Shown here: positions 20,816 to 35,965 of the stretch, in pieces
How positions within the stretch are numbered: position 1 is the first letter of the stretch
How the letters are laid out: each line of letters opens with the position of its first letter
Program-made: the position numbers and the translations under genes
Assembly: GCA_964397855.1 (NCBI GenBank)
Contig: CAYNKQ010000001.1
Span: 38,046 to 102,045 of the forward strand
Length of the DNA: 64,000 nucleotides
DNA from: an uncultured Candidatus Saccharibacteria bacterium
GTDB lineage: Bacteria; Patescibacteriota; Saccharimonadia; Saccharimonadales; UBA7683
Reading direction: 5' to 3'
Notes under the pieces: model-generated
Database searches by the model: none
Told to the model about the DNA's origin: nothing
Seen by the model: only the letters and a program-made list of their open reading frames with translations

Positions 20816-21061
20816 ATGTACGTGTATGCACTTTACAATCGGATAAATAAGAAAATCTATATTGGTCAGACGGCTAATCTAGAAAAACGACTTACTGAAC
20901 ATAATGAGAAATATGGTAATCATTTTACTGCAAAAGTTCAGGGCGAATGGGAGTTGATTTATAATGAGTCAGTTGCCACTCGCTCTGAGGCCATTAAGCG
21001 CGAAAAGCAATTAGAAAGCTTCAGGGGCAGAGAGTTTATCAAAATACATATTCCGACGTAG
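20816..21061 (+). CDS. GIY-YIG nuclease family protein
   Basis: 81 aa. MYVYALYNRINKKIYIGQTANLEKRLTEHN is a typical GIY-YIG core (Y..Y.....IYIG.T.NL.RR...H). The stop overlaps the first 10 nt of tRNA-Asn. Confidence 0.75.
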   Translation: MYVYALYNRINKKIYIGQTANLEKRLTEHNEKYGNHFTAKVQGEWELIYNESVATRSEAIKREKQLESFRGREFIKIHIPT

Positions 21062-21126
21062 CTCAGTGGTAGAGCGGGACGCTGTTAACGTTTAGGTCGC
21101 TGGTTCGAATCCAGCCGTCGGAGCCA
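21052..21126 (+). tRNA. tRNA-Asn (anticodon GUU)
   Basis: Manual fold. Acceptor TCCGACG/CGTCGGA, D-arm GCTC-AGTGGTA-GAGC, anticodon arm GGACG-CTGTTAA-CGTTT (two G-U pairs), variable loop AGGTC, T-arm GCTGG-TTCGAAT-CCAGC, discriminator G and encoded CCA. Confidence 0.85.
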
Positions 21127-22707
21127 GAATCTCTGAAACTCATTATTAGAACCGTCTTCCATCTGTTGGGGGGCGGTTCTAACCATTTCAGATACTGATA
21201 CCTTGTGATCATTCATCTTTTCGATGGGAACAAAGAGATTATTAGGGGTAAATGTGATGGTTCTATCCATCAATGAAAGTCTTTCACCAAGCTTGAATAT
21301 CACAGATCGTTTCTTTTCATGATCATCAGAGTCGAAGTCTTCCTTGGCGTATCTTGCAAAAGTAAAAACTTCATCTGCAGTTTCGCGCCAGTTTCTAGCT
21401 TCGTATTCTGACTTGCTCCGCTGATCTTGTAGTTTTTTAAGTGTCGATTCAAGTTGGGCAAGCTCTGCGAAATACCATGCGTCGTCATCAGCCTCGCCAC
21501 TGTACCTCATGCGTCTAAGGCTGGATATCGAAAGTGTTTTTTTATGAATAGCACGCTCCACTTCAAGCAACTTAGATTTTTCTTTAGCTACTATAAAATC
21601 TTCCTCCTCTGCTAGGGCCTCGATAGCTAACCTATAGAAATCCGGATCTATAGTAAACTTTTCTAGCTTTAACTTGATTTGATTAACTAACTCCTGCTCC
21701 GTCACGCAATAACTTCTTTGGGCACACTTTTGCCTGGTACTCTTACCGGTGCAATGATAATAGATATACTCACGAAGCTCGCCATTTGATTTAAGTTTCT
21801 TAGTCTTAAGCTCGGCTGTAACTCCATACCCGCACTCACCGCATTTAAGCAGGTTCCTTAATAAGAACGTCTGACTTTTGTTCTTTGGTCTAGTTGTGTG
21901 CCCAGGATCAATAATCTCTTGCACTCTCTTAAACTCCTCCTCAGTAACCATGGGGACCTGGTTACCCTTGTAAACATTACCTAAAAAACTTAATTTTCCC
22001 GTATAGAAAATGTTTTTAAATACTGTATGAAGCGTAGAGTAGGCAAGTGCTTTTCCGCCAGTCTTCCCTCGACGCGGCGTTAAAATCAAAAGTTCTTTTT
22101 CTGCAACATCCACCAGTTGAGCCACAGAGTAAGTTCCAGTCAACATTTTATCCCAGAGCGTACGGATCTTAGGAAATAGTTCCGGATCTGGGACTATTGT
22201 TTTTGCGAGTCGATCGTTGAGATAGCCAATTGGTGGGATCCCAGGCTTGTCCCCTTTGAGGGCTTTAGACTTCATACCCCTTTTAGTGTTTGCTGCTAAT
22301 TCACGGATGTACTGGTTGGACATACCAGCTTCCACGCTCAGTAGTAACGCGTTGTCTGACGGAGTATATGCTTTATCGGATGTCTGTATCATCTGCAACT
22401 TACCATCTTGAAGTAACTGCTGAAGCCTGCCGCTATCGGTGGGGTTACGAGATAAACGATTGAATTGCCAGCAAAGTATTGCGTTTATTGAACCATTCTC
22501 GATAAGCGACATCATTCGTTCGAACTCAGGTCTATTGCCTGGTAGTTTTGCAGATTTCGATTCTACGAACTTCTCCACCATCATTAGATTCTTTTGCCTG
22601 GCTAATTCACTCATAAGTCGAGTTTGGTCTTCAAGCGATTGAACCTGTTTGTCTTCTGTGTCTGTTGACTTACGTACATACAAGCCAAATTTTAATAGTT
22701 TATCCAT
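21085..22707 (-). CDS. Large serine recombinase (resolvase N-terminal catalytic domain, recombinase domain and zinc-ribbon, with a coiled-coil C-terminus)
   Basis: N-terminal MDKLLKFGLYVRKSTDTEDKQVQSLEDQ is the resolvase catalytic-Ser region. Also has C..C..C/H zinc-ribbon motifs (CGECGYGV...YYHCTG). Start set at ATG 22707, which has a good RBS (AGGAGA). The ORF track extends to 22884. The 3-prime end overlaps tRNA-Asn positions 34-75. Confidence 0.85.
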   Translation of the reverse strand: MDKLLKFGLYVRKSTDTEDKQVQSLEDQTRLMSELARQKNLMMVEKFVESKSAKLPGNRPEFERMMSLIENGSINAILCWQFNRLSRNPTDSGRLQQLLQDGKLQMIQTSDKAYTPSDNALLLSVEAGMSNQYIRELAANTKRGMKSKALKGDKPGIPPIGYLNDRLAKTIVPDPELFPKIRTLWDKMLTGTYSVAQLVDVAEKELLILTPRRGKTGGKALAYSTLHTVFKNIFYTGKLSFLGNVYKGNQVPMVTEEEFKRVQEIIDPGHTTRPKNKSQTFLLRNLLKCGECGYGVTAELKTKKLKSNGELREYIYYHCTGKSTRQKCAQRSYCVTEQELVNQIKLKLEKFTIDPDFYRLAIEALAEEEDFIVAKEKSKLLEVERAIHKKTLSISSLRRMRYSGEADDDAWYFAELAQLESTLKKLQDQRSKSEYEARNWRETADEVFTFARYAKEDFDSDDHEKKRSVIFKLGERLSLMDRTITFTPNNLFVPIEKMNDHKVSVSEMVRTAPQQMEDGSNNEFQRFWLRRLDSNQRPKR

Positions 22708-22974
22708 GAATTGTTCTCCTCTTAGAACCAAAAAGGGCGGCCTGGTTGTTGTAACATCCAGTAGCAAAAAGCCACTTTCCGTACCAAGCCGCCCGTTAGA
22801 GGACAGAAAATATAATAGCTTTTGCCAAGACCTGAATGTTACAACGTTAATATTGTATCTAAATTTATACTTACTGGCGAGCAAATCTTTATTAATAGAA
22901 ACTTGAGTGAAGATACCTTGACAGTCATGATATCTTTAATAAAGATCTAATAAATAAAGATATAATCGCGCTAA

Positions 22975-25306: not shown

Positions 25307-25987
25307 TCACTGGGAGTTCAAGGGTTGGATGTAGCTTGCTTCGTCAGACCGTGAACTATTCACGTCCCTGCTCACCTCAACTATGTTTAACATTCCGTCT
25401 TTGTAAGGTTTCATCAGCTGTGATATTGCATCTGGTTCATCAAGCGAAGGCTCTAGCCATAAAGACGTATCGTCCGGCTGCAAAATTACGGGCATCCTAT
25501 CATGGACTTTGCTCATTTCTTTATTTGGTTCTGTGGTGATGATTGAATAAGTACCCCAGTCATGACCTTCTGCATCTTTCCAGTGGCCGTACACGCCAGC
25601 AAATGCAAACAGTTCCTGATCCTTCGGCTGTATAAAGAATGGTTGTTTGTCACCCTTGGCACCCTTCCACTCATAGAAGCCGTTCGAGGGCACTAAGCAC
25701 CTTTGAAACTTAATAGCTTTACTCCAAGACCTTTTTTCAAACACACCCTCTGCACGAGTGTTAAACATCTTGTATTTGAACATATCTTTAGAGTCTTTCA
25801 TCCAAGGGGTCATGAAGCCCCACTTCATTTGCTCAACATGATTGCCGCCATCCTTCTGAAGGATGATAGGCACCAGTTGACTCGGTGCTATGTTGTAACG
25901 TTCTTTGAACCCAGCAACTTCTTTCTCGGGCACCTTGAACAGGTGGGGTATTTTACCTGTTTGATATAGGGTATAACGTCCGCACAT
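25307..25987 (-). CDS. SOS-response-associated peptidase (SRAP/YedK/HMCES family) abasic-site processing protein
   Basis: 226 aa starting MCGRYTLYQ (catalytic Cys2). Also has the conserved ...FNTRAE...GFYEW... SRAP motifs. Confidence 0.8.
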   Translation of the reverse strand: MCGRYTLYQTGKIPHLFKVPEKEVAGFKERYNIAPSQLVPIILQKDGGNHVEQMKWGFMTPWMKDSKDMFKYKMFNTRAEGVFEKRSWSKAIKFQRCLVPSNGFYEWKGAKGDKQPFFIQPKDQELFAFAGVYGHWKDAEGHDWGTYSIITTEPNKEMSKVHDRMPVILQPDDTSLWLEPSLDEPDAISQLMKPYKDGMLNIVEVSRDVNSSRSDEASYIQPLNSQ

Positions 25988-26037: not shown

Positions 26038-26448
26038 TTAAACCACATCTTGGCGGATAGGGAATATCGGAGATGTGAACCTATCTTGGCTTACAGGGGT
26101 AGTTTCAGCCTCGGCGTCTAAAGCTTCGTTGCGTAAGCCGACGCATAAATCATCTAATGCAGTTGATCCTTTGACAACCATGGCCATTAGGCCCACGTAG
26201 GTACCTATTCTTGTGGGCTCCCTTCCTTCTAAGAGTTCGTTAGATAGTAATACTACCAGTGGTTGACAGATAATTATGCCCGTCCACATATAGAAGTTCG
26301 CTCCACCCTTAGCAAGAATCTCTGCCGCTCTACCTTCCCTCCACGACTTCTCTTGTGGAAGCGCAGGCTGATCCTGTTCAATTAACACTCCTGGGTTATA
26401 CATAACATAACTATAGCATAAATATAATAATAAAGCAAGGACAATCAT
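26038..26448 (-). CDS. Hypothetical membrane protein
   Basis: 136-aa ORF upstream of and co-oriented with the SRAP gene. Two hydrophobic segments. Confidence 0.35.
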   Translation of the reverse strand: MIVLALLLYLCYSYVMYNPGVLIEQDQPALPQEKSWREGRAAEILAKGGANFYMWTGIIICQPLVVLLSNELLEGREPTRIGTYVGLMAMVVKGSTALDDLCVGLRNEALDAEAETTPVSQDRFTSPIFPIRQDVV

Positions 26449-26707
26449 GTACGAACTTATAAATGAACCAGTAGATATGATCGCTATTTTTGGTAAATCA
26501 TTCCACGACCTTAAGCCTTATCGTTTTCGTTGGGCCGACAAAGAGTACCTGATTACTAAAATTGGATATAAGCACAAAACTAAAGAAGGAAAGAAGGTAA
26601 TCCATGTTTTCTCGGTAACCGACGGAGTTAACTTCTTCGAGCTCCGTTTCGATGCAGACGACATAGGCTGGGTACTTGGGAGGACCTGGGATGGCGAAGC
26701 CAATTAA
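26447..26707 (+). CDS. Small protein translationally coupled to the Y-family polymerase (YolD/UmuD-surrogate-like accessory factor?)
   Basis: 86-aa ORF overlapping the downstream polymerase ORF. The arrangement mirrors small-partner/UmuC-like pairs on mobile elements. No motif-level support. Confidence 0.3.
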   Translation: MYELINEPVDMIAIFGKSFHDLKPYRFRWADKEYLITKIGYKHKTKEGKKVIHVFSVTDGVNFFELRFDADDIGWVLGRTWDGEAN

Positions 26708-27971
26708 TCCCTACGGCTTAGGCTTAAACACTGAAGATCCTCGCATGATGCACATAGATATGAATAGCTGTTTCGCAAGTGTGGAGCAGCAAGCTAATCC
26801 GCTCCTGCGCGGTCGTCCGGTCGCGGTTTCGGCGTACGATTCACCTGGAGCAATAATCATCGCACCATCAATAGAGGCAAAGGCTATGGGTATTAAGCTT
26901 GGAATGACAAACGCAGAAGGCAAAGGTATATGTCCTGATCTGGTGGTCCTCACGCCCGATCCTATGAAGTATCGTGACGCAAATATTCGCTTCAGAAACA
27001 TATTTCAAAGTTATACCGATAAAGTAGCCCCAAAGTCGATTGACGAGGCTGTGATGGACTTCAGGGGGTCTCTGGCGATAAAAAATAAGACCATGATCGA
27101 TATAGGGAGGGAGATCAAACAGAGAGTGAAGGTGGAGATTGGAGAGTGGATACAGGTCAACGTAGGAATTGGCACAAGTCGTTGGACTGCAAAGATGGCG
27201 GCGGGCTTGCATAAACCCAATGGCTTGGACGTGCTTACGCACAAAAACCTACTTGATGTATACGGGCATCTACAACTGACTGACCTTACAGGAATTAGTA
27301 GACGAAACGAAGCTCGCTTAAACTCATACGGGATCTATACACCCTTAGACTTTTATAATGCGCCCGTCGACCTACTGAAAAAACAAGTGTTTCAGTCAAT
27401 CGTTGGCTACTATTGGTATGTTGAGCTTCGCGGTTGGGAAATGCATGATATCGATACGAGTCGCAGGTCCTTTGGCCACACCTATGCGCTAGGGAAGAAA
27501 ACGGTCGACAAGGCAAAGCTAGCACCTATGCTCATGAAGCTCTGCGAGAAGACCGGCAGACGGCTTCGTAGGCATGGGTATTATGCTCAGGGTATTCACG
27601 TGTCATTCGTCTACTACGACCATACATACTGGGGTAAAGGTAGGCGGGTAAGGGCGCCGCTATATACAACACAAGATATTTTTAAACACGCAATGCTGAT
27701 ATTCAACATGCAGCCACATCGCAAGATCGTAACCAATTTGTTTGTGACAGTGTACGATCTCGCCAGCAATGAATACCTCCCCAAAAGTCTGTTTGATGTT
27801 GGCAAGATGGACGTGGTTGCTCGTTCAAGGGCATTTGACGATATCAATGATCGCTATGGCGAGTTCACGGTAATACCTGCTGCGATGTTGGATGCAAAAG
27901 ACATCATTTTAGATCGCGTAGCGTTCGGTGGCGTTAAAGAACTGGAAGATCTTTATAACAACACCTTATAG
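26676..27971 (+). CDS. Y-family translesion DNA polymerase (UmuC/UvrX-like)
   Basis: HIDMNSCFASVEQQANPLLRGRPVAVS...IIAPSIEAKAMGIKLGM matches the UmuC/DinB N-terminal palm. The probable true start is the MM at 26748. Confidence 0.8.
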   Translation: MGGPGMAKPINPYGLGLNTEDPRMMHIDMNSCFASVEQQANPLLRGRPVAVSAYDSPGAIIIAPSIEAKAMGIKLGMTNAEGKGICPDLVVLTPDPMKYRDANIRFRNIFQSYTDKVAPKSIDEAVMDFRGSLAIKNKTMIDIGREIKQRVKVEIGEWIQVNVGIGTSRWTAKMAAGLHKPNGLDVLTHKNLLDVYGHLQLTDLTGISRRNEARLNSYGIYTPLDFYNAPVDLLKKQVFQSIVGYYWYVELRGWEMHDIDTSRRSFGHTYALGKKTVDKAKLAPMLMKLCEKTGRRLRRHGYYAQGIHVSFVYYDHTYWGKGRRVRAPLYTTQDIFKHAMLIFNMQPHRKIVTNLFVTVYDLASNEYLPKSLFDVGKMDVVARSRAFDDINDRYGEFTVIPAAMLDAKDIILDRVAFGGVKELEDLYNNTL

Positions 27972-28004: not shown

Positions 28005-28748
28005 CTATTTACCAAATAACTGGTCCAACTTTCCAAGTTCCCGCTGCTGTGTGTCAGCGTCAGAGTACATCTCCGTGATCTCGGATCTCTTAACCGCGTA
28101 AATATTTTCACTTTTAGACCACTTAACCATTTGTTCTCTGCGACGCCGTGTAAACTCTGGCTGTATTTTTGATGAGATTATTTCTATCGGAGCCCCGGTT
28201 TGTGTCGCCAAGCTTCTTGAGGTTTGAGCGTAGTTCTGAGATATCTCTTCCAGAATCTGACGATGAGTAGACTCGTAGACAATCACATCCATATCGATAT
28301 TATCAAGGGGATTGCTGGACTTTAGCTTACGCTTTAGGTCTTCAAGATCCGCCTGAATACTAGGCAGAAACTCGTGAAGAGGTTTACTCGGTTGGCCGTG
28401 GTGAGTTTGTTTGTATTCAGGAAAAGCGTCTTCTTGAGCTCCTCGGTAATATGCAGTGAGATTTCTATTTTTCTCGAAAAGGAAAAAATCCTCTGCATGT
28501 GTTTGGTCTGGTTTCATGTAGCGTATGCCAACGCCTATGGATTCGTTCTCAGTAGAGGTTGGGTAGGAAATGGTAATCTCGACCTTTATACCAGTTTTGC
28601 GATCAATTACTATGCCGTAGCTGTTTAAAAGTTCACCGATTTTGTAGCCCCAAGGATTCAGGAGCCCGCCTTGAGCCGCATCTACAATTACTTTAACTTC
28701 ATCGTAAGCCTTTGAAGAGTCCTTAATAACTTTGCCAGGTTTACTCAT
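28005..28748 (-). CDS. Hypothetical protein, downstream partner of the TIR-like gene (candidate effector/sensor)
   Basis: 247 aa, soluble, no TM and no recognisable catalytic motif. Its start overlaps the stop of the upstream gene by 8 nt. Confidence 0.45.
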   Translation of the reverse strand: MSKPGKVIKDSSKAYDEVKVIVDAAQGGLLNPWGYKIGELLNSYGIVIDRKTGIKVEITISYPTSTENESIGVGIRYMKPDQTHAEDFFLFEKNRNLTAYYRGAQEDAFPEYKQTHHGQPSKPLHEFLPSIQADLEDLKRKLKSSNPLDNIDMDVIVYESTHRQILEEISQNYAQTSRSLATQTGAPIEIISSKIQPEFTRRRREQMVKWSKSENIYAVKRSEITEMYSDADTQQRELGKLDQLFGK

Positions 28749-29550
28749 CGTTAGTTTTAAGCATTTTGATTATGTCAAAGCCCTTTTTTGCTAAAGTATA
28801 GTTCGGAGTACCTCTGCTACTAACTGCCAGCTTTAAGATGTTCTGCTGCACAAGATCATCCATATTGGCCACAACTTCTTGGGTACTGTATCGCTTAATT
28901 TGGTTGTGAATTTCTTCTTTAACTTGACCAGCCATCATTAGGTCGGAGCCACCCATGTGAACAGACACCATTATTCTTTTTTCATCTTCCATAGCCGCGA
29001 ACGCTCGCATGATCACAAGCTGTATATCATCTAAAGACTTCTCAACTTTATCAATATCTTGTTCGTCTAAGCTGTTTAGGTGGGCAGTTAGGGCGCCGAC
29101 AAGCTTCTCTTTTAACTTAGATCCATTCTTGTCATCTTTTTCAATTGAAAACTGAAGTACTCTATGGTGGGAGATATCAAAGGGTAAGTCCTTCGGATCG
29201 CCAAGATCAGCGTTAAAGAGCATCACGACATTATGTTCTGAGTGCTTTGCAATAGCATACCCAAGTTCGAACATCACATTTTGGTTAACTAGCTTAGCTC
29301 CAGAAGTTGATAAATCAACCATAGAAACGTCGGCTACGAATATTCCACAGTTATCAATTTTATCCTTGATCGTGGTCGCAATATTGGGAGAGCCGACTGA
29401 TCCTTGTGTGTCTCTATCAAGTCTTGGGGACTTTTCTAAAATATTTTTTCCCGCGAGCTCAGTAATAGAATTACTCAATGCTTTGCTTATAAAGCCCTTG
29501 GTTTTTTGATTGTTGCTTTGCCATGAGTAAAATATAGAGACACTTTCCAT
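28741..29550 (-). CDS. TIR-like domain protein (ThsB/DUF1863-like N-terminal domain plus ~120-aa helical C-terminal domain)
   Basis: 269 aa. N-terminus VSIFYSWQSNNQ matches the betaA signature of bacterial TIR/TIR-like domains (VFISYSW[DE]...). A conserved Glu sits in NVMFELGYAI about 95 aa in. Confidence 0.5.
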   Translation of the reverse strand: MESVSIFYSWQSNNQKTKGFISKALSNSITELAGKNILEKSPRLDRDTQGSVGSPNIATTIKDKIDNCGIFVADVSMVDLSTSGAKLVNQNVMFELGYAIAKHSEHNVVMLFNADLGDPKDLPFDISHHRVLQFSIEKDDKNGSKLKEKLVGALTAHLNSLDEQDIDKVEKSLDDIQLVIMRAFAAMEDEKRIMVSVHMGGSDLMMAGQVKEEIHNQIKRYSTQEVVANMDDLVQQNILKLAVSSRGTPNYTLAKKGFDIIKMLKTNDE

Positions 29551-29645
29551 AATTTAAGTATATCTCATTGAGAACGCGAACAGACAACCCCTGGGTTTAA
29601 GTCGATTATGTAAACCGAAGGTAAAACCCCGCGATCTCTATAGGG

Positions 29646-29915
29646 ATGAGTGTTAATAATAAAACCAAGGGTGGTAAGATGTTAGAAATTAGTAAAGTGC
29701 GAAGCCTCTTGACCAACGAAACAAATGGAATGTCCAATAAGCAGATTGGCGCGGTCTTAAACAGATTGGGTGATCTGCCTGAAGATGAGCTTTCGGCTGC
29801 TTGGAAGAGAGAGGTAGACCGTCATTATATAGAGTTGGCTTCCTTTCTGTATGATCGTTTCAAAAGTGCTTCTAAAGTTAACAGTTGTAAAACTGACGTC
29901 AAGATTCTTGAATAG
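29646..29915 (+). CDS. Small hypothetical protein
   Basis: 89-aa ORF with RBS-like GGGTGG upstream. Followed by the hairpin AACCGC-N7-GCGGTT at 29993-30011. Confidence 0.3.
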   Translation: MSVNNKTKGGKMLEISKVRSLLTNETNGMSNKQIGAVLNRLGDLPEDELSAAWKREVDRHYIELASFLYDRFKSASKVNSCKTDVKILE

Positions 29916-30179: not shown

Positions 30180-30506
30180 CTACCAAGTTCGTGTTGGTGA
30201 ATTCAACCAAGTTGCTGAGTCACTATCAATGTTCCAAGAAGACCATGTCCGTGGATAAATCCGAGTGACTAAGTACTCATCGTTCGGGTCACCTGCGCTC
30301 GAGAGCTTGTCCCGCCAATAACCTGCCGAGCTGGCAGAGTCGATAAGCCAAACTGAGCCTTGAGGGTGCGTGTACTTACCAATTCCAACGCTTTTAATCG
30401 CAGCGATAACGTCGTCGTAATCTCTGCCGGGGTTGTGTAAATCGTAACTAACTGTGTAAACCATAATGGATAGTTCCTTTATATTGTTAATGTTCTTTGC
30501 CAACAC
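30180..30506 (-). CDS. Hypothetical small protein
   Basis: 108-aa ORF. The probable start is the internal MVYTVSYDL... RBS present. Confidence 0.35.
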   Translation of the reverse strand: MLAKNINNIKELSIMVYTVSYDLHNPGRDYDDVIAAIKSVGIGKYTHPQGSVWLIDSASSAGYWRDKLSSAGDPNDEYLVTRIYPRTWSSWNIDSDSATWLNSPTRTW

Positions 30507-30992
30507 AAACAGAACTGTCGTGAGTCAGTTGATGAACTAGAGGCCAAGCGGTGGTCGGTGATTTTATGTTCGCGTAAACATGTTATGAGCCGAAAACCGC
30601 AAAGCTTTTCTAGGTGTTGGTTGGGCAGCTCCTTCTATACCCCAGAGTACCCTCTGTTAATAAAAGAAGTCTACACCACTCGAGGGACGTAGGTGCCCCC
30701 TTGCGTGGGCTACTACTCCGTGGGAGTTGTTGGTACTTCTACCTACTGCTCCCCCGAGTGCTATAGACTTAATGTCTGCAAGGATGACGGTGTACCAATA
30801 CCGTATTTTTACACAGCCTCTCTCAAGGCTGATACATTTATTATACCAGAATCCGCTTACGGCTGGAAGCTTTTAGGCCAGTTTATTGTGAAAAATACTA
30901 AGAAACGTGCTGCCTGCGAGATGCTAACAGATTAAGCGTGAATGCTGTTCAATTTCACGACCAGTCTTAAGCCACTAACCGTTTCGAACTAA

Positions 30993-31095
30993 GGTTATAA
31001 CTTCCTCTATCGTGGGGAGCCAAGCCATGTTAGATGAAGTCAGAACTGTGAAAATGGTTCTGACTTTTTGTATACCCAAAATAGAACTGAAACCG
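30993..31095 (+). repeat. Cassette-boundary repeat copy 1 (attC-like: L arm, perfect central hairpin plus T-run, R arm)
   Basis: GGTTATAACTTCCTCTATCGTGGGGAGCC ... AAGTCAGAAC-N10-GTTCTGACTTTTTG ... TATACCCAAAATAGAACTGAAACCG. The L and R arms are imperfect inverted repeats (TCTATYGT / ACAATAGA). Confidence 0.6.
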
Positions 31096-32043: not shown

Positions 32044-32163
32044 TAATTACAGTTATAACTTCCTCTATTGTTGTGAGCCAAGCTGGAATAGACGAAGTCA
32101 GAACTGGTAATTCGGTTCTGACTTTTTGTATACCCACAATAGAATTGAAACCGTTTAGAGCGT
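32044..32163 (+). repeat. Cassette-boundary repeat copy 2
   Basis: AGATCCTGCTTAATTACAGTTATAACTTCCTCTATTGTTGTGAGCCAAGC...AAGTCAGAAC-N10-GTTCTGACTTTTTGTATACCCACAATAGAATTGAAACCG. About 85% identical to copy 1. Confidence 0.65.
32105..32138 (+). terminator. Intrinsic-terminator-like hairpin within repeat copy 2 (10-bp perfect stem plus TTTTT)
   Basis: AAGTCAGAAC TGGTAATTCG GTTCTGACTT TTTG, ~95 nt downstream of the 31760..32011 stop. An identical stem is at 31037-31070. Confidence 0.5.
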
Positions 32164-32909: not shown

Positions 32910-33455
32910 ATGAGTACTGCAGAAAACTTACAAACAAACAATCCAGACGTGTTGCTTATTGAGCCTGATATTGAACGAGACGCCGCTCTTGGTGTTCAGT
33001 GGCTCAAGGGCGAACTAGGGCGATCAACACTTACTTCTATGGGCGTTTCCGACAAAGACAATAAGCCCACTACCCCTGAACACGAACGAGAGCGTGTCAG
33101 AGATTTCATCGAGGGGCAAGAACAGCTTAATTGGATGATTGAATATCAAGGTAGAGTTGTCGGTTCGGTGTGGGCAGAACTTAAGCAAGTCGGCAACGTA
33201 CCAGCCCCTGCTATTCATATTATGATTGGCGATCCTAATGTACGAGGTAAGGGTGTCGGGTATGCGGCAACCAGCAAAGTAACGGAGTACTTGGAAAATC
33301 GAGGGTTTAAGTCTATTTACTCAAGGCACCTGATAAAAAATAGCGGCGCAAGTGGCTTACTGCAATCACTTGGCTTTACTAATTTCGGAGAGCCATACGA
33401 TGATGATGACGGACTGGAATGGCAAAATGTAAAAAAGGAAGTCAAGGCCGAATAA
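32910..33455 (+). CDS. GNAT family N-acetyltransferase (aminoglycoside-acetyltransferase-like size and architecture)
   Basis: 181 aa. HIMIGDPNVRGKGVGYAATSKVTEYL is the GNAT acetyl-CoA-binding motif A (Q/R-x-x-G-x-G/A). Paralogous to 35408..35965. Confidence 0.7.
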   Translation: MSTAENLQTNNPDVLLIEPDIERDAALGVQWLKGELGRSTLTSMGVSDKDNKPTTPEHERERVRDFIEGQEQLNWMIEYQGRVVGSVWAELKQVGNVPAPAIHIMIGDPNVRGKGVGYAATSKVTEYLENRGFKSIYSRHLIKNSGASGLLQSLGFTNFGEPYDDDDGLEWQNVKKEVKAE

Positions 33456-33461
33456 CACTGC

Positions 33462-33540
33462 AGTCTGCCTTGATTACGGTTATAACTTGCTCTATCGTTG
33501 TGAGCCAAACAAATGCAACTCACATCTGTGGGTTGTTTTC
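33462..33540 (+). repeat. Cassette-boundary repeat copy 4 (left arm intact, centre replaced)
   Basis: AGTCTGCCTTGATTACGGTTATAACTTGCTCTATCGTTGTGAGCCAAAC then AAATGCAACTCACA. This forms a TGTGAG/CTCACA hairpin instead of the AAGTCAGAAC stem. Confidence 0.5.
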
Positions 33541-33829
33541 GTTTCTCTGGTGTTTGGTTCGGTTCGGTGACCTGAGATTGCGAAGGAATCTCGCAAGGTT
33601 ACGATTCGATAGTCAAGTGCTCTCGCAGAAGCTCGCTTCGAGAAAGTACGCAGAGTATACTCGGGTAATCCAGTCGCCGGAGCCACGAAGATTACATCTG
33701 TTAATTTTCATACCCCAAACTTGACTTCCGAACTAATACCTCTGATGAGGTATTTTTTGTTATACTAACAACATGATAAGCAAGTAATTCATCCCAGATA
33801 AATAACAATTAACAAAGGAATGAATTATT

Positions 33830-34609
33830 ATGCGTGTAAAAACTAAATACGATGACGTTAATAAAGTACTAGATCTTCTCACGGAGGGCTTAGTAGAGCT
33901 ACTCGGAGATCAACTAGTCGGCTTATATTTAACAGGATCACTGACCTACAGTGACTTCAATCGTGATAGCAGTGACATAGATTTTCTTGCAGTGCTTGAA
34001 ACCGGACTTGCTGATAGCCAGTTTGAGAAAGTGAAAAAACTTCACGAAGCGATTGCCAATGAAGTACCTCATTGGTCTAAGAATCTTGAAGGCTCTTATA
34101 TAACTCGAGGTATGTTAGGAAATATAGAGGTACCAGAGGAAAAACGTCCTTATGTAAACGGTGGCAAGGTTTCTTACTGTACCTATGGAAATGAATGGAC
34201 TATCAATTTGTACGCCCTTCAAGAATGCGGACAGGTTATCTACGGGGCGGGGGTGCAGCCGTTATTGCCAATAGTAACAATTGAGCAAGTAAGAGAATCA
34301 TCCAGGCAAGATTTACTAAAAGACTGGGCTCCTAAAGTAAATGATCCGAATGCTTTCACTCATTCAATGTATGACAGTGAACACTTAAAGAACTATGCAA
34401 CGCTAACTATGTGCAGAATACTTTACAGAGCAAAGAATGATAACATCGCCTCAAAGAAAGTTGCTTCTAAATGGGTTAAAGAGACCTACCCTGAGTGGAA
34501 AGATCTGGTTGAACGGGCAGAAGATTGGATTCACGGCAAAGAGATGGGCAGTGATACCAAAGTGAGGAAGTTTATCGAGTTTACTCTAGAACAAGTTCAG
34601 AAAGATTAA
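33830..34609 (+). CDS. Nucleotidyltransferase-domain protein resembling aminoglycoside adenylyltransferases (AadA/ANT(3'')(9)-like)
   Basis: 259 aa. LVGLYLTGSLTYSDFNRDSSDIDFLAVLE is the pol-beta-type NTase motif G[SG]-x9-13-D-x-D. Length and the C-terminal helical domain resemble ~260-aa AadA-family enzymes. RBS AAAGGA upstream. Confidence 0.6.
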   Translation: MRVKTKYDDVNKVLDLLTEGLVELLGDQLVGLYLTGSLTYSDFNRDSSDIDFLAVLETGLADSQFEKVKKLHEAIANEVPHWSKNLEGSYITRGMLGNIEVPEEKRPYVNGGKVSYCTYGNEWTINLYALQECGQVIYGAGVQPLLPIVTIEQVRESSRQDLLKDWAPKVNDPNAFTHSMYDSEHLKNYATLTMCRILYRAKNDNIASKKVASKWVKETYPEWKDLVERAEDWIHGKEMGSDTKVRKFIEFTLEQVQKD

Positions 34610-34789
34610 AGCTATTTGACGTCACGTGGCGGGATAGTTGGACTATCTCGTCATAGTACTTAGTTCGTAATATGCTTGGCAGAGGGAGCCAGAGCCAGCA
34701 GTGAAATACAGTGATCGGTTCCCGTGACCTGTTCCTGATTCACTCCTGACTCAAGTCAAGAAGAGTGACTTTAATAAAATTGCTCAAAA

Positions 34790-35284
34790 ATGCTGGAACC
34801 ATCTGAAAGGGTGGTTTTTGCATATTCACCCCTGGAAATAAGTTCTAGAGCCGAGCCGTTTCCTATTACAATGTTGCTGCCAGGCCAGGCCCCGCCATCG
34901 ATATGCAGGGCAAAAAAGGCCGTAATTATCGATGATCCACATCGGATGCCGCCTACCTTGAACACTGCAATAGGATTGGTCGAACAGTCGGAAGACGAGT
35001 TTAATGACCTTGGTGAAAGCATATTAGATCCGGTGCTTAAACAGCCGCAGCGACAACATCATCTTAAAGTTCATTATCGATCAAAATACAACAAACTTTT
35101 TGAGCGATCGCGTGAGGCGATTTATAGCAACGATGGGATTGAACCGATCTTTGAAGCAAAGCTAGCTGATGGAGCGCCTATTGATATTCTCGATGGTTTG
35201 GGTGGAGAGCTAGACGATAATGGCTACGATAAGAACTTTTACAAAATTTGCGAATCACCGAAGATTACTTGGCAAAAAAGATAG
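34790..35284 (+). CDS. Hypothetical protein (weak call; the opposite-strand ORF 34771..35022 competes)
   Basis: 164-aa ORF with no motifs. This region between the cassette-like array and the BGC is ambiguous. Confidence 0.2.
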   Translation: MLEPSERVVFAYSPLEISSRAEPFPITMLLPGQAPPSICRAKKAVIIDDPHRMPPTLNTAIGLVEQSEDEFNDLGESILDPVLKQPQRQHHLKVHYRSKYNKLFERSREAIYSNDGIEPIFEAKLADGAPIDILDGLGGELDDNGYDKNFYKICESPKITWQKR

Positions 35285-35407
35285 TAAAGCTGAATTCCGC
35301 ATACTCTTTACAAGAGGTGATGATGAACGAATCCCAAAAGTACAGAAGGATAGTCAAGGAAGGCTAATTCACCGAATTTGAATGTTTCAGGTTGCTACGT
35401 ATATCCT

Positions 35408-35965
35408 CTATACAGCCAATACGATGTTTTGCCATGCGAGCCCGTCACTATCCTTATAGGCAGCTCCGTCTTTCTTAAATCCGAGAGACTCATTTAATTT
35501 TGTTACAGCAATGTTGTCTGCGAGATGTCGAGAGTATACTGTTTTGAGTTTTAGCACATCTCGAATATAGTTTATCGCTGATTGCATTGCCGATCTACCG
35601 ATGCCTTTACCACGATAGTCGGGATTGCCTATCATGATGTGGATACTTGGGGATTTAACACCGTGATTTTCAAATAGCTCTATCCAGACGACGCCAATAG
35701 TTTTGCCGTCGGCCACGATAACACGAGTTATTTGCTTGCCGGAGTCCTCGAGATCGATAAATTCCTGCATAATGGCACGTTCACCTTCTAGGGTGGACGG
35801 TTCTATTTCGTTTTCTGAGTTGCCCATACTTAAGAGAGTGGCATGCCCTTCTGGGCGCGTAAACCAACTGTGTGCAAATGGGGTATCACGATCAACCTCC
35901 GGTTTTAGAAGTTGTATGTCGGTGTGCAGTGATTTCATGATTCTCCTATAGGCCTCGCTCGGCAT
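35408..35965 (-). CDS. GNAT family N-acetyltransferase (paralog of 32910..33455), co-operonic with the aminotransferase
   Basis: 185 aa. SIHIMIGNPDYRGKGIGRSAMQSAINYI GNAT motif A. Overlaps the upstream aminotransferase gene by 20 nt. Confidence 0.7.
   Translation of the reverse strand: MPSEAYRRIMKSLHTDIQLLKPEVDRDTPFAHSWFTRPEGHATLLSMGNSENEIEPSTLEGERAIMQEFIDLEDSGKQITRVIVADGKTIGVVWIELFENHGVKSPSIHIMIGNPDYRGKGIGRSAMQSAINYIRDVLKLKTVYSRHLADNIAVTKLNESLGFKKDGAAYKDSDGLAWQNIVLAV

Follow-up and report, generated by a model that had tools for sequence, protein, structure and literature searches.

The window analyzed here, a 64,000-nucleotide (nt) stretch of contig CAYNKQ010000001.1 (assembly GCA_964397855.1), carries two overlapping genes, A and B, which raise the question of whether a protein with a TIR-like N-terminal domain (A) and an orphan partner (B) form a two-gene defense system, or whether A acts by itself. 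The favored answer, to which we give a probability of about one half, is that A is a self-contained, single-protein conflict or defense candidate, with a TIR/NADase role assigned by analogy, and that B is not a conserved part of it. B would have landed directly downstream of A in this lineage only, either as an independent gene or as a locally recruited accessory. This reading is carried by the domain assignments of A, its invariant residues, its solitary distribution, and its association with mobile elements.

Both genes are encoded on the (-) strand. Gene A (28741..29550) was defined from the open reading frame (ORF) list, its homologues, and a family alignment; it encodes 269 amino acids (aa) that comprise a TIR-like N-terminal domain, a linker, and a winged helix-turn-helix, and the protein starts with MESVSIFYSWQS in both the ORF list and the raw sequence. 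Gene B (28005..28748), defined from the ORF list, its homologues, and an AlphaFold2 model, encodes an orphan protein of 247 aa with two modules. The two genes share 8 nt (28741..28748, letters ATGAGTAA), as confirmed from the ORF list, the sequence, and the junction. The ATG of B is located inside the last codons of A (ACG ATG AGT AA), and no obvious Shine-Dalgarno sequence was found upstream of it at this junction. A database search returned 777 homologues of A at E<=1e-3, about 20 of which are full-length and 60-69% identical to A. For B, three full-length homologues were recovered at approximately 51% identity, and an exhaustive HMMER search of 1.84 billion representative proteins yielded 94 cluster representatives of its rare family. 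Because homologues exist for each, A and B are real genes, and the two overlapping genes of 269 and 247 aa given by the initial annotation were confirmed. Their G+C contents are 39.6% (A) and 43.3% (B), compared to 45% for the whole window.

The question of a two-gene system was decided by synteny. In total, 28 other distinct loci with an A-type TIR-like domain were examined (five close full-length homologues, 22 viral contigs, and one conjugative plasmid), together with ten other distinct B-family loci, which gives 11 B-family contexts when the window is included. A B relative was present at none of the 28 loci, and an A relative at none of the ten. The tblastn searches likewise detected no B relative at the loci of close A homologues and no A relative at any B-family locus. 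The sole other co-occurrence of A and B (locus L013) is an identical copy from a read-set assembly, and the pair had no match in phage genomes at the DNA level. The pair, proposed as a candidate novel defense operon, is thus not co-conserved; a tight gene overlap in a compact genome was insufficient for calling a two-gene system.

The close homologues of A at the five loci (L005/6, L007/8, L009/10, L011, and L012) are all solitary genes, with a gap, a convergent gene, or unrelated genes on their downstream side. The surroundings of these homologues include type III restriction-modification (R-M) genes, an MmeI-type R-M gene with a serine recombinase and a large helicase, and a CdiA_C toxin domain. 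Further surroundings contain an S24 peptidase with an RHS/HNH toxin, and an AAA_21 ATPase with DUF3892. The homologue at L009 is surrounded by housekeeping genes. In a related metagenome-assembled genome (MAG; L007 4701-6816), the A homologue follows a large serine recombinase gene at a distance of 25 nt and adjoins the MmeI-type R-M gene and a gene for a 1284-aa helicase, which echoes the recombinase-linked setting of the window.

The FYSWQS-type domain, named after the N-terminal signature of A, was also found on mobile elements. On 22 IMG/VR viral contigs, ORFs of about 250-570 aa start with this domain and differ in their C-terminal regions. Searches with B profiles (hmmsearch) matched none of the neighbors on these contigs, among which there is no general partner family. 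The domain was further found on 67 plasmid records, most of them conjugative, at approximately 41% identity in solitary hypothetical genes. The plasmid example inspected (L027, Providencia plasmid NZ_CP096358.1, 104337-105344) contains a solitary 335-aa gene. The hosts of these plasmids, which are large and mostly of the MOBH type, include Providencia, Proteus, Escherichia, and Rhizobium.

The TIR-like domain of A (29131..29550, (-) strand, residues ~1-140) is of the CAP12/Pycsar type and was assigned from a PF10137 match and from invariant columns. PF10137 (CAP12/Pycsar effector TIR, STIR clan) matched A with 29.0 bits, above the gathering cut-off of 24.7. All 40 full-length A relatives tested matched the same family (best E=3e-7), and most A homologues carry a precomputed PF10137 annotation. 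Invariance was scored over two alignments, one of the 40 full-length relatives and one of 22 diverse N-terminal domains. The invariant residues of the family are F7-Y-S-W-Q11, D74, N89-Q-N91 (NQN), E95 (in NVMFELGY), and P123-F-D125. Glu95 is invariant in both alignments and is located within the PF10137-matched stretch. Therefore, the TIR-like N-terminal domain and the conserved Glu about 95 aa into the protein, both read from the sequence in the initial annotation, were upheld. The ThsB-type families PF08937 and PF13676 did not match A, for which PF10137 and a weaker match to PF05014 were the only Pfam families, and DUF4062 gave no match even at E<=1.

The remainder of A had been described as a helical extension of about 120 aa. 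Instead, it consists of a helical linker (residues ~141-169) and a winged helix-turn-helix of the PadR/RosR type (28756..29043, (-) strand, residues ~170-265), which was assigned by comparing family profiles with RosR structures. The C-terminal profile matched the RosR structures 6qfd and 6ez1 at E=2.4e-5 over 54 residues that cover the recognition helix and the wing, and the full-length family profile matched the RosR winged-helix structures 6qfd, 6qua, and 6ez1 at E=7e-4. Pfam helix-turn-helix models gave no match in the A family. By profile similarity, the C-terminal third of A is a PadR/RosR-like winged helix of a putative DNA-binding type. Furthermore, the C-terminal regions joined to the N-terminal domain vary widely across the family, whose proteins range from 191 to 574 aa, with examples of 410, 469, and 390 aa, the last annotated with TPR repeats. 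An effector that exchanges its sensors within one protein would be expected to show such varied fusions.

The closest known systems are consistent with an effector role for A. TIR domains of PF10137 are NADase effectors that are activated by oligomerization and deplete NAD+ through a catalytic Glu, and they are not signal producers of the ThsB type (10.64898/2026.04.30.722052). A resembles the CAP12/Pycsar TIR effectors (Sphingobacterium faecium TIR-STING and PycTIR) in its PF10137 membership, in an invariant Glu in the expected region, and in the fusion of the TIR-like domain to a second domain, a candidate sensor. However, this second domain is a winged helix rather than a STING, SAVED, or cyclic-nucleotide-binding domain, and the PF10137 match is partial, with the N-terminal FYSWQS(D/N) signature marking a distinct subfamily. 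A also differs from the operon effectors of Pycsar and of cyclic-oligonucleotide-based antiphage signaling systems (CBASS) in that no CD-NTase or pyrimidine cyclase gene is located near it; Pfam searches found neither among the larger ORFs from 18.8 to 37.2 kb (about 7 kb upstream and 8 kb downstream).

Single-gene defense systems with a TIR-like core and a variable auxiliary region have been reported (10.64898/2026.05.01.722283; 10.64898/2026.06.25.731849), and a survey of Thoeris systems set aside stand-alone TIR proteins as probable NAD+-depleting effectors (10.64898/2025.12.03.692087). Like the DUF4062 systems Swarozyc and Evangelion, A has a compact N-terminal TIR-like core that is related to the TIR and nucleoside 2-deoxyribosyltransferase clans and contains a conserved Glu. 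It likewise shares with them a diversified C-terminal auxiliary region and an occurrence as a single gene on mobile elements or islands (10.64898/2026.05.01.722283; 10.64898/2026.06.25.731849). In contrast, A belongs to another TIR-like family with other motifs and without a DUF4062 match, and its family is a defense candidate. PADLOC returned short local matches for A, namely to a TIR effector model (E=0.0018) and to PDC-S35, a single-gene defense candidate (27 bits over 35 residues). The local motif NxNVxFELGY...LPFD is common to A and PDC-S35, which suggests a related TIR-like core. However, the aligned residues are confined to the C-terminal part of the profile, which has about 270 positions, and A has another architecture and is not a member of PDC-S35. 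A literature search on the FYSWQS motif, PDC-S35, and fusions of TIR domains with winged helices returned nothing relevant.

The activity, trigger, and defense role of A are proposed by analogy. On the model of TIR-STING, PycTIR, Swarozyc, and Evangelion, the winged helix, perhaps together with the helical linker, would sense a trigger. The most likely triggers would be nucleic acids and ligands or proteins derived from a phage. Sensing would lead to oligomerization of the TIR-like domains, and the oligomerized protein would hydrolyze NAD+ or a related nucleotide through Glu95, resulting in growth arrest of the infected cell.

Several observations weigh against a single-protein defense candidate. 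The PF10137 match on A spans residues 49-122 only, the PADLOC matches to A are short, weak, and local, and the TIR fold of A and the predicted catalytic role of E95 rest on profile matches. PADLOC defense models matched none of the eight small or unannotated neighbors tested, and no known defense gene is located nearby. Moreover, the 8-nt overlap and the same strand argue for joint expression of A and B, with B predicted to be co-transcribed with A in this lineage. Finally, HNH, caspase, and HEPN-like domains are repeatedly found next to B modules or in fusion with them, so B may be no bystander. A lineage-specific functional pairing of A and B is possible.

These last points concern B, which consists of two modules. 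The N-terminal module (28374..28748, (-) strand, residues ~1-125) is an undescribed alpha/beta domain that was delimited from the alignment and the model. The family match over residues ~5-125 is made mostly by stand-alone proteins of 110-145 aa. R76, K79, E86, Y112, and H116 are invariant in this domain, S61, P63, G74, D87, F89, and E111 are nearly so, and its motif reads G-x-R-Y-x-K ... (T/A)EDxFLFE ... PEYxGTH. The C-terminal module (28005..28373, (-) strand, residues ~126-247 and the stop codon) is a helical hairpin or coiled coil, which occurs alone in the proteins P0137 and P0139 and behind other N-terminal regions in P0138 and P0210. An AlphaFold2 model of B from a 58-sequence alignment was confident (predicted local distance difference test score, pLDDT, 90.2), and the N-terminal domain of an earlier model from four sequences was poor (pLDDT 68.7). 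In the confident model, one strand precedes two helices, after which come a four-stranded sheet, a short helix, and finally four long helices.

B was described initially as a partner without a recognizable domain, and this description held. B had no match in Pfam, NCBIfam, or PADLOC, and PHROGs and NCBIfam returned noise only. Pfam searches over 58 members of the B family gave no consistent family and no toxin family. Nothing significant was found when B profiles were compared to PDB sequences, and Foldseek searches of the B model against the PDB and BFVD (viral models) gave nothing at E<=1e-3, with the helical C-terminal module dominating these searches. The model contains neither a transmembrane segment nor a known effector fold. 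B was also correctly set apart from the known Thoeris effectors, as neither a SLOG, Macro, or SIR2 domain nor any other domain known to bind signals or to kill was found in it.

The contexts of the B family are heterogeneous, with various partners or none. Genome and metagenome scans for B loci gave five loci, and no B-family match was found on viral contigs or plasmids. The closest B homologues overlap a different upstream protein of 172-183 aa, in an island with PLDc_2, AIPR, and DNA methylase genes. A BLAST comparison of the 172-aa upstream partner with the additional C-terminal domains in P0130 and P0133 was negative, and a 'Rosetta stone' link between them was rejected. At L015 (4974-7425), a B homologue of 221 aa overlaps a downstream gene for a 605-aa caspase C14 protein, which also matches PADLOC PDC-S65; these two genes may be a separate two-gene conflict unit. 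In a Moranbacteria MAG (L016 4989-6520), a 113-aa mini-B is encoded 3 nt upstream of a gene for a 150-aa HNH endonuclease, and the overlapping ORF after the HNH gene carries HARE-HTH and a weak PD-(D/E)XK match. Other B-family genes follow a DUF45-like HExxH protein, follow DUF6367, or precede a 239-aa protein without assignment. One B homologue is solitary in a Saccharibacteria MAG, and at some loci B-family genes stand alone near housekeeping genes; solitary or non-defense contexts were recorded at L014, L017-19, L022, and L050-53. Two fusions were also found. P0142 joins the B N-terminal domain to an HEPN_AbiU2-like region with an RHKQVGH motif, and P0210 joins an HNH_2-like domain to the C-terminal coiled coil of B; both Pfam matches are just below threshold. 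Among the three B-family loci that have a named organism, two come from Saccharibacteria and Moranbacteria, and the family is possibly concentrated in bacteria of the candidate phyla radiation. Overall, the B contexts, in a small and mixed sample, are suggestive of a conflict-system module with exchangeable partners.

The alternative that survives best, and which we hold only tentatively, is that A and B form a lineage-specific two-component system. B would be its constant sensor or regulator and A one of several interchangeable effectors, whose place would be taken elsewhere by an HNH nuclease, a caspase-like protease, an HEPN RNase, or another partner. The overlap on the same strand fits this alternative, as do the caspase C14/PDC-S65-like gene overlapped by a B homologue, the HNH gene just after the mini-B, the fusions P0142 and P0210, and the other upstream gene overlapped by the closest B homologues in its PLDc_2, AIPR, and DNA methylase island. 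However, gene overlaps are common in compact genomes, A has its own candidate sensor and is solitary at 28 of 28 other loci, and several B-family genes are solitary or lie in non-defense contexts. The HEPN and HNH matches of the two fusions fall below the Pfam thresholds, and the sample comprises 11 distinct B contexts, the window included.

A broader version of this proposal is doubtful. It would make the B family a new, rare sensor or adaptor module that joins interchangeable killing domains by adjacency or fusion, and A-B an unrecognized two-component immune system. The killing domain would be a TIR-like NADase here and a caspase-like protease, an HNH nuclease, or an HEPN RNase elsewhere, and the task of detecting infection or of controlling the effector would fall to the undescribed N-terminal fold with R76, K79, E86, Y112, and H116.

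It is unlikely that A is instead a nucleoside 2-deoxyribosyltransferase-like or nucleotide-processing enzyme with a DNA-binding regulator domain, which would act in metabolism, salvage, or regulation and to which B would be unrelated. PF05014, the nucleoside 2-deoxyribosyltransferase family, is the second Pfam match of A (16.7 bits, E=0.0081) and matches 19 of the 40 relatives weakly (best E=2.3e-4). The STIR and Nribosyltransf Pfam clans are related (10.64898/2026.05.01.722283). The sole similarity of the N-terminal domain to PDB sequences is to the 2-deoxyribosyltransferase 6qai, at a non-significant E=0.23, over an 'ADxS...FELGYA' stretch that contains E95. The likeness is thus centered on (D)x...FELGYA with the catalytic Glu of these enzymes, and some A loci, such as L009, lie amid housekeeping genes. 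However, PF05014 falls short of its gathering cut-off of 28.8 and PF10137 exceeds its own, so a non-TIR fold of this kind, which would have overturned the TIR assignment, is the weaker and sub-threshold of the two. Furthermore, the distribution and fusions of A resemble those of conflict systems: unlike a housekeeping enzyme, the family is patchy and occurs on islands, plasmids, and prophage-like contigs with swapped C-terminal domains.

An improbable alternative concerns the N-terminal domain of B, which would be a small toxin- or antitoxin-like module, recalling the RelE/ParE type, so that A-B or B alone would be an addiction element stabilizing the island. The confident B model has a compatible order of secondary structure in its strand, two helices, and four-stranded sheet. 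The invariant R, K, E, Y, and H may form an active or binding site, and the stand-alone versions are only 110-145 aa. On the other hand, no Pfam toxin family was found in the 58 members, no RelE-type structure appeared among the fold matches of searches dominated by the helical C-terminal module, and no conserved small partner gene lies beside the mini-B genes. In the hhalign comparison with RelE and YoeB, the probability was below 1%; the RelE/YoeB identity was therefore rejected and kept as a topology-level lead only.

The Thoeris-like model of the initial annotation, in which A would sense infection and make an NAD-derived signal that activates B as effector, shares with Thoeris a TIR-type gene with a tightly coupled second gene and could draw on new Thoeris types whose effectors are of unknown function (10.64898/2025.12.03.692087), but it is highly improbable and fails in three tests, because the operon is conserved at no other locus, the TIR domain matches effector-type PF10137 and not the ThsB-type families, and the partner has no recognizable effector, signal-binding, or transmembrane domain and no PADLOC match, with relatives that occur without an adjoining TIR gene.

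The A-B unit lies on a tRNA-Asn-linked island with a serine recombinase. The tRNA-Asn(GTT) gene (21052..21126, (+) strand), located about 7 kb from the unit, probably anchors the accessory region. The gene of the large serine recombinase (21085..22884, (-) strand; Resolvase, Recombinase, and Zn_ribbon_recom domains) overlaps with its 3' end the 3' half of the tRNA gene on the opposite strand. No second copy of the tRNA-Asn 3' end, which would mark the far boundary of a presumed integrated element, was found in the window. The G+C content is somewhat lower across about 20-36 kb of the window. The island contains a gene for an SOS-response-associated peptidase (SRAP; 25307..25987, (-) strand; PF02586, E=2e-69) and one for a Y-family DNA polymerase (26676..27971, (+) strand; IMS and IMS_C domains), which converges on B with 33 nt between the stop codons. 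Since none of the eight neighbors tested matches the PADLOC defense models, the setting is an accessory, DNA-damage-flavored island and no demonstrable defense island. The tRNA-linked accessory region and its damage genes, as first annotated, were therefore recovered through the tRNA-Asn, the recombinase, SRAP, and the polymerase, whereas the defense genes ascribed to it were not.

The first 32 nt of the polymerase gene are shared with an 86-aa ORF (26447-26707, (+) strand), which could be an uncharacterized accessory subunit of the polymerase. Beside this ORF lies a divergent 136-aa ORF (26038-26448, (-) strand), and neither ORF matched Pfam, PHROGs, or PADLOC. On the other side of the pair, the intergenic region between A and a divergent 89-aa ORF (29646-29915) covers 29551..29645 and presumably contains the promoter of the A-B unit. 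The sole consensus-like -35/-10 pair nearby (29685-29656, nine of 12 positions) is located beyond this region, inside the divergent ORF, and promoter and terminator scans gave numbers of sites not above those of shuffled sequence. Further on, a 108-aa ORF (30180-30506, (-) strand) matched phrog_1090, a phage family of unknown function (E=5e-21), as the only phage-family match among the neighbors.

Three copies of an intergenic repeat (30987-31095, 32045-32153, and 33469-33508) have a conserved box of roughly 30 nt in common, GGTTATAACTTCCTCTATCGTTGTGAGCCAAGC, which precedes a terminator-like hairpin, GAAGTCAGAAC...GGTTCTGAC, and then TTTTT in the first two of them. These two long copies are 83% identical over 109 nt and have no Rfam match. 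The repeats lie between small accessory genes for VIT1, DUF5661, an alpha/beta hydrolase, GNAT, and an AadA-like nucleotidyltransferase in a cassette-like layout. A resistance-type cluster (32910-35965) comprises two GNAT acetyltransferases and an AadA-like aminoglycoside nucleotidyltransferase (NTP_transf_2 and AadA_C), which would be notable if the host is a reduced-genome bacterium of the Saccharibacteria type.

If A works as proposed, it would represent a new subfamily of one-protein immune devices with a TIR-like core and a variable sensor. This subfamily counts more than 700 relatives, which are spread over genomic islands, prophage-like contigs, and conjugative plasmids. Its TIR domain, of the CAP12/Pycsar type, lacks a cyclic-nucleotide partner and is joined in the branch of A to a winged-helix sensor. 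The interest of B is chiefly that of an undescribed domain family, with modules that are found in association with nucleases and proteases. If the proposal is true, A would be among the few defense candidates described in what, judged by its relatives, appears to be a reduced-genome, Saccharibacteria-type bacterium.

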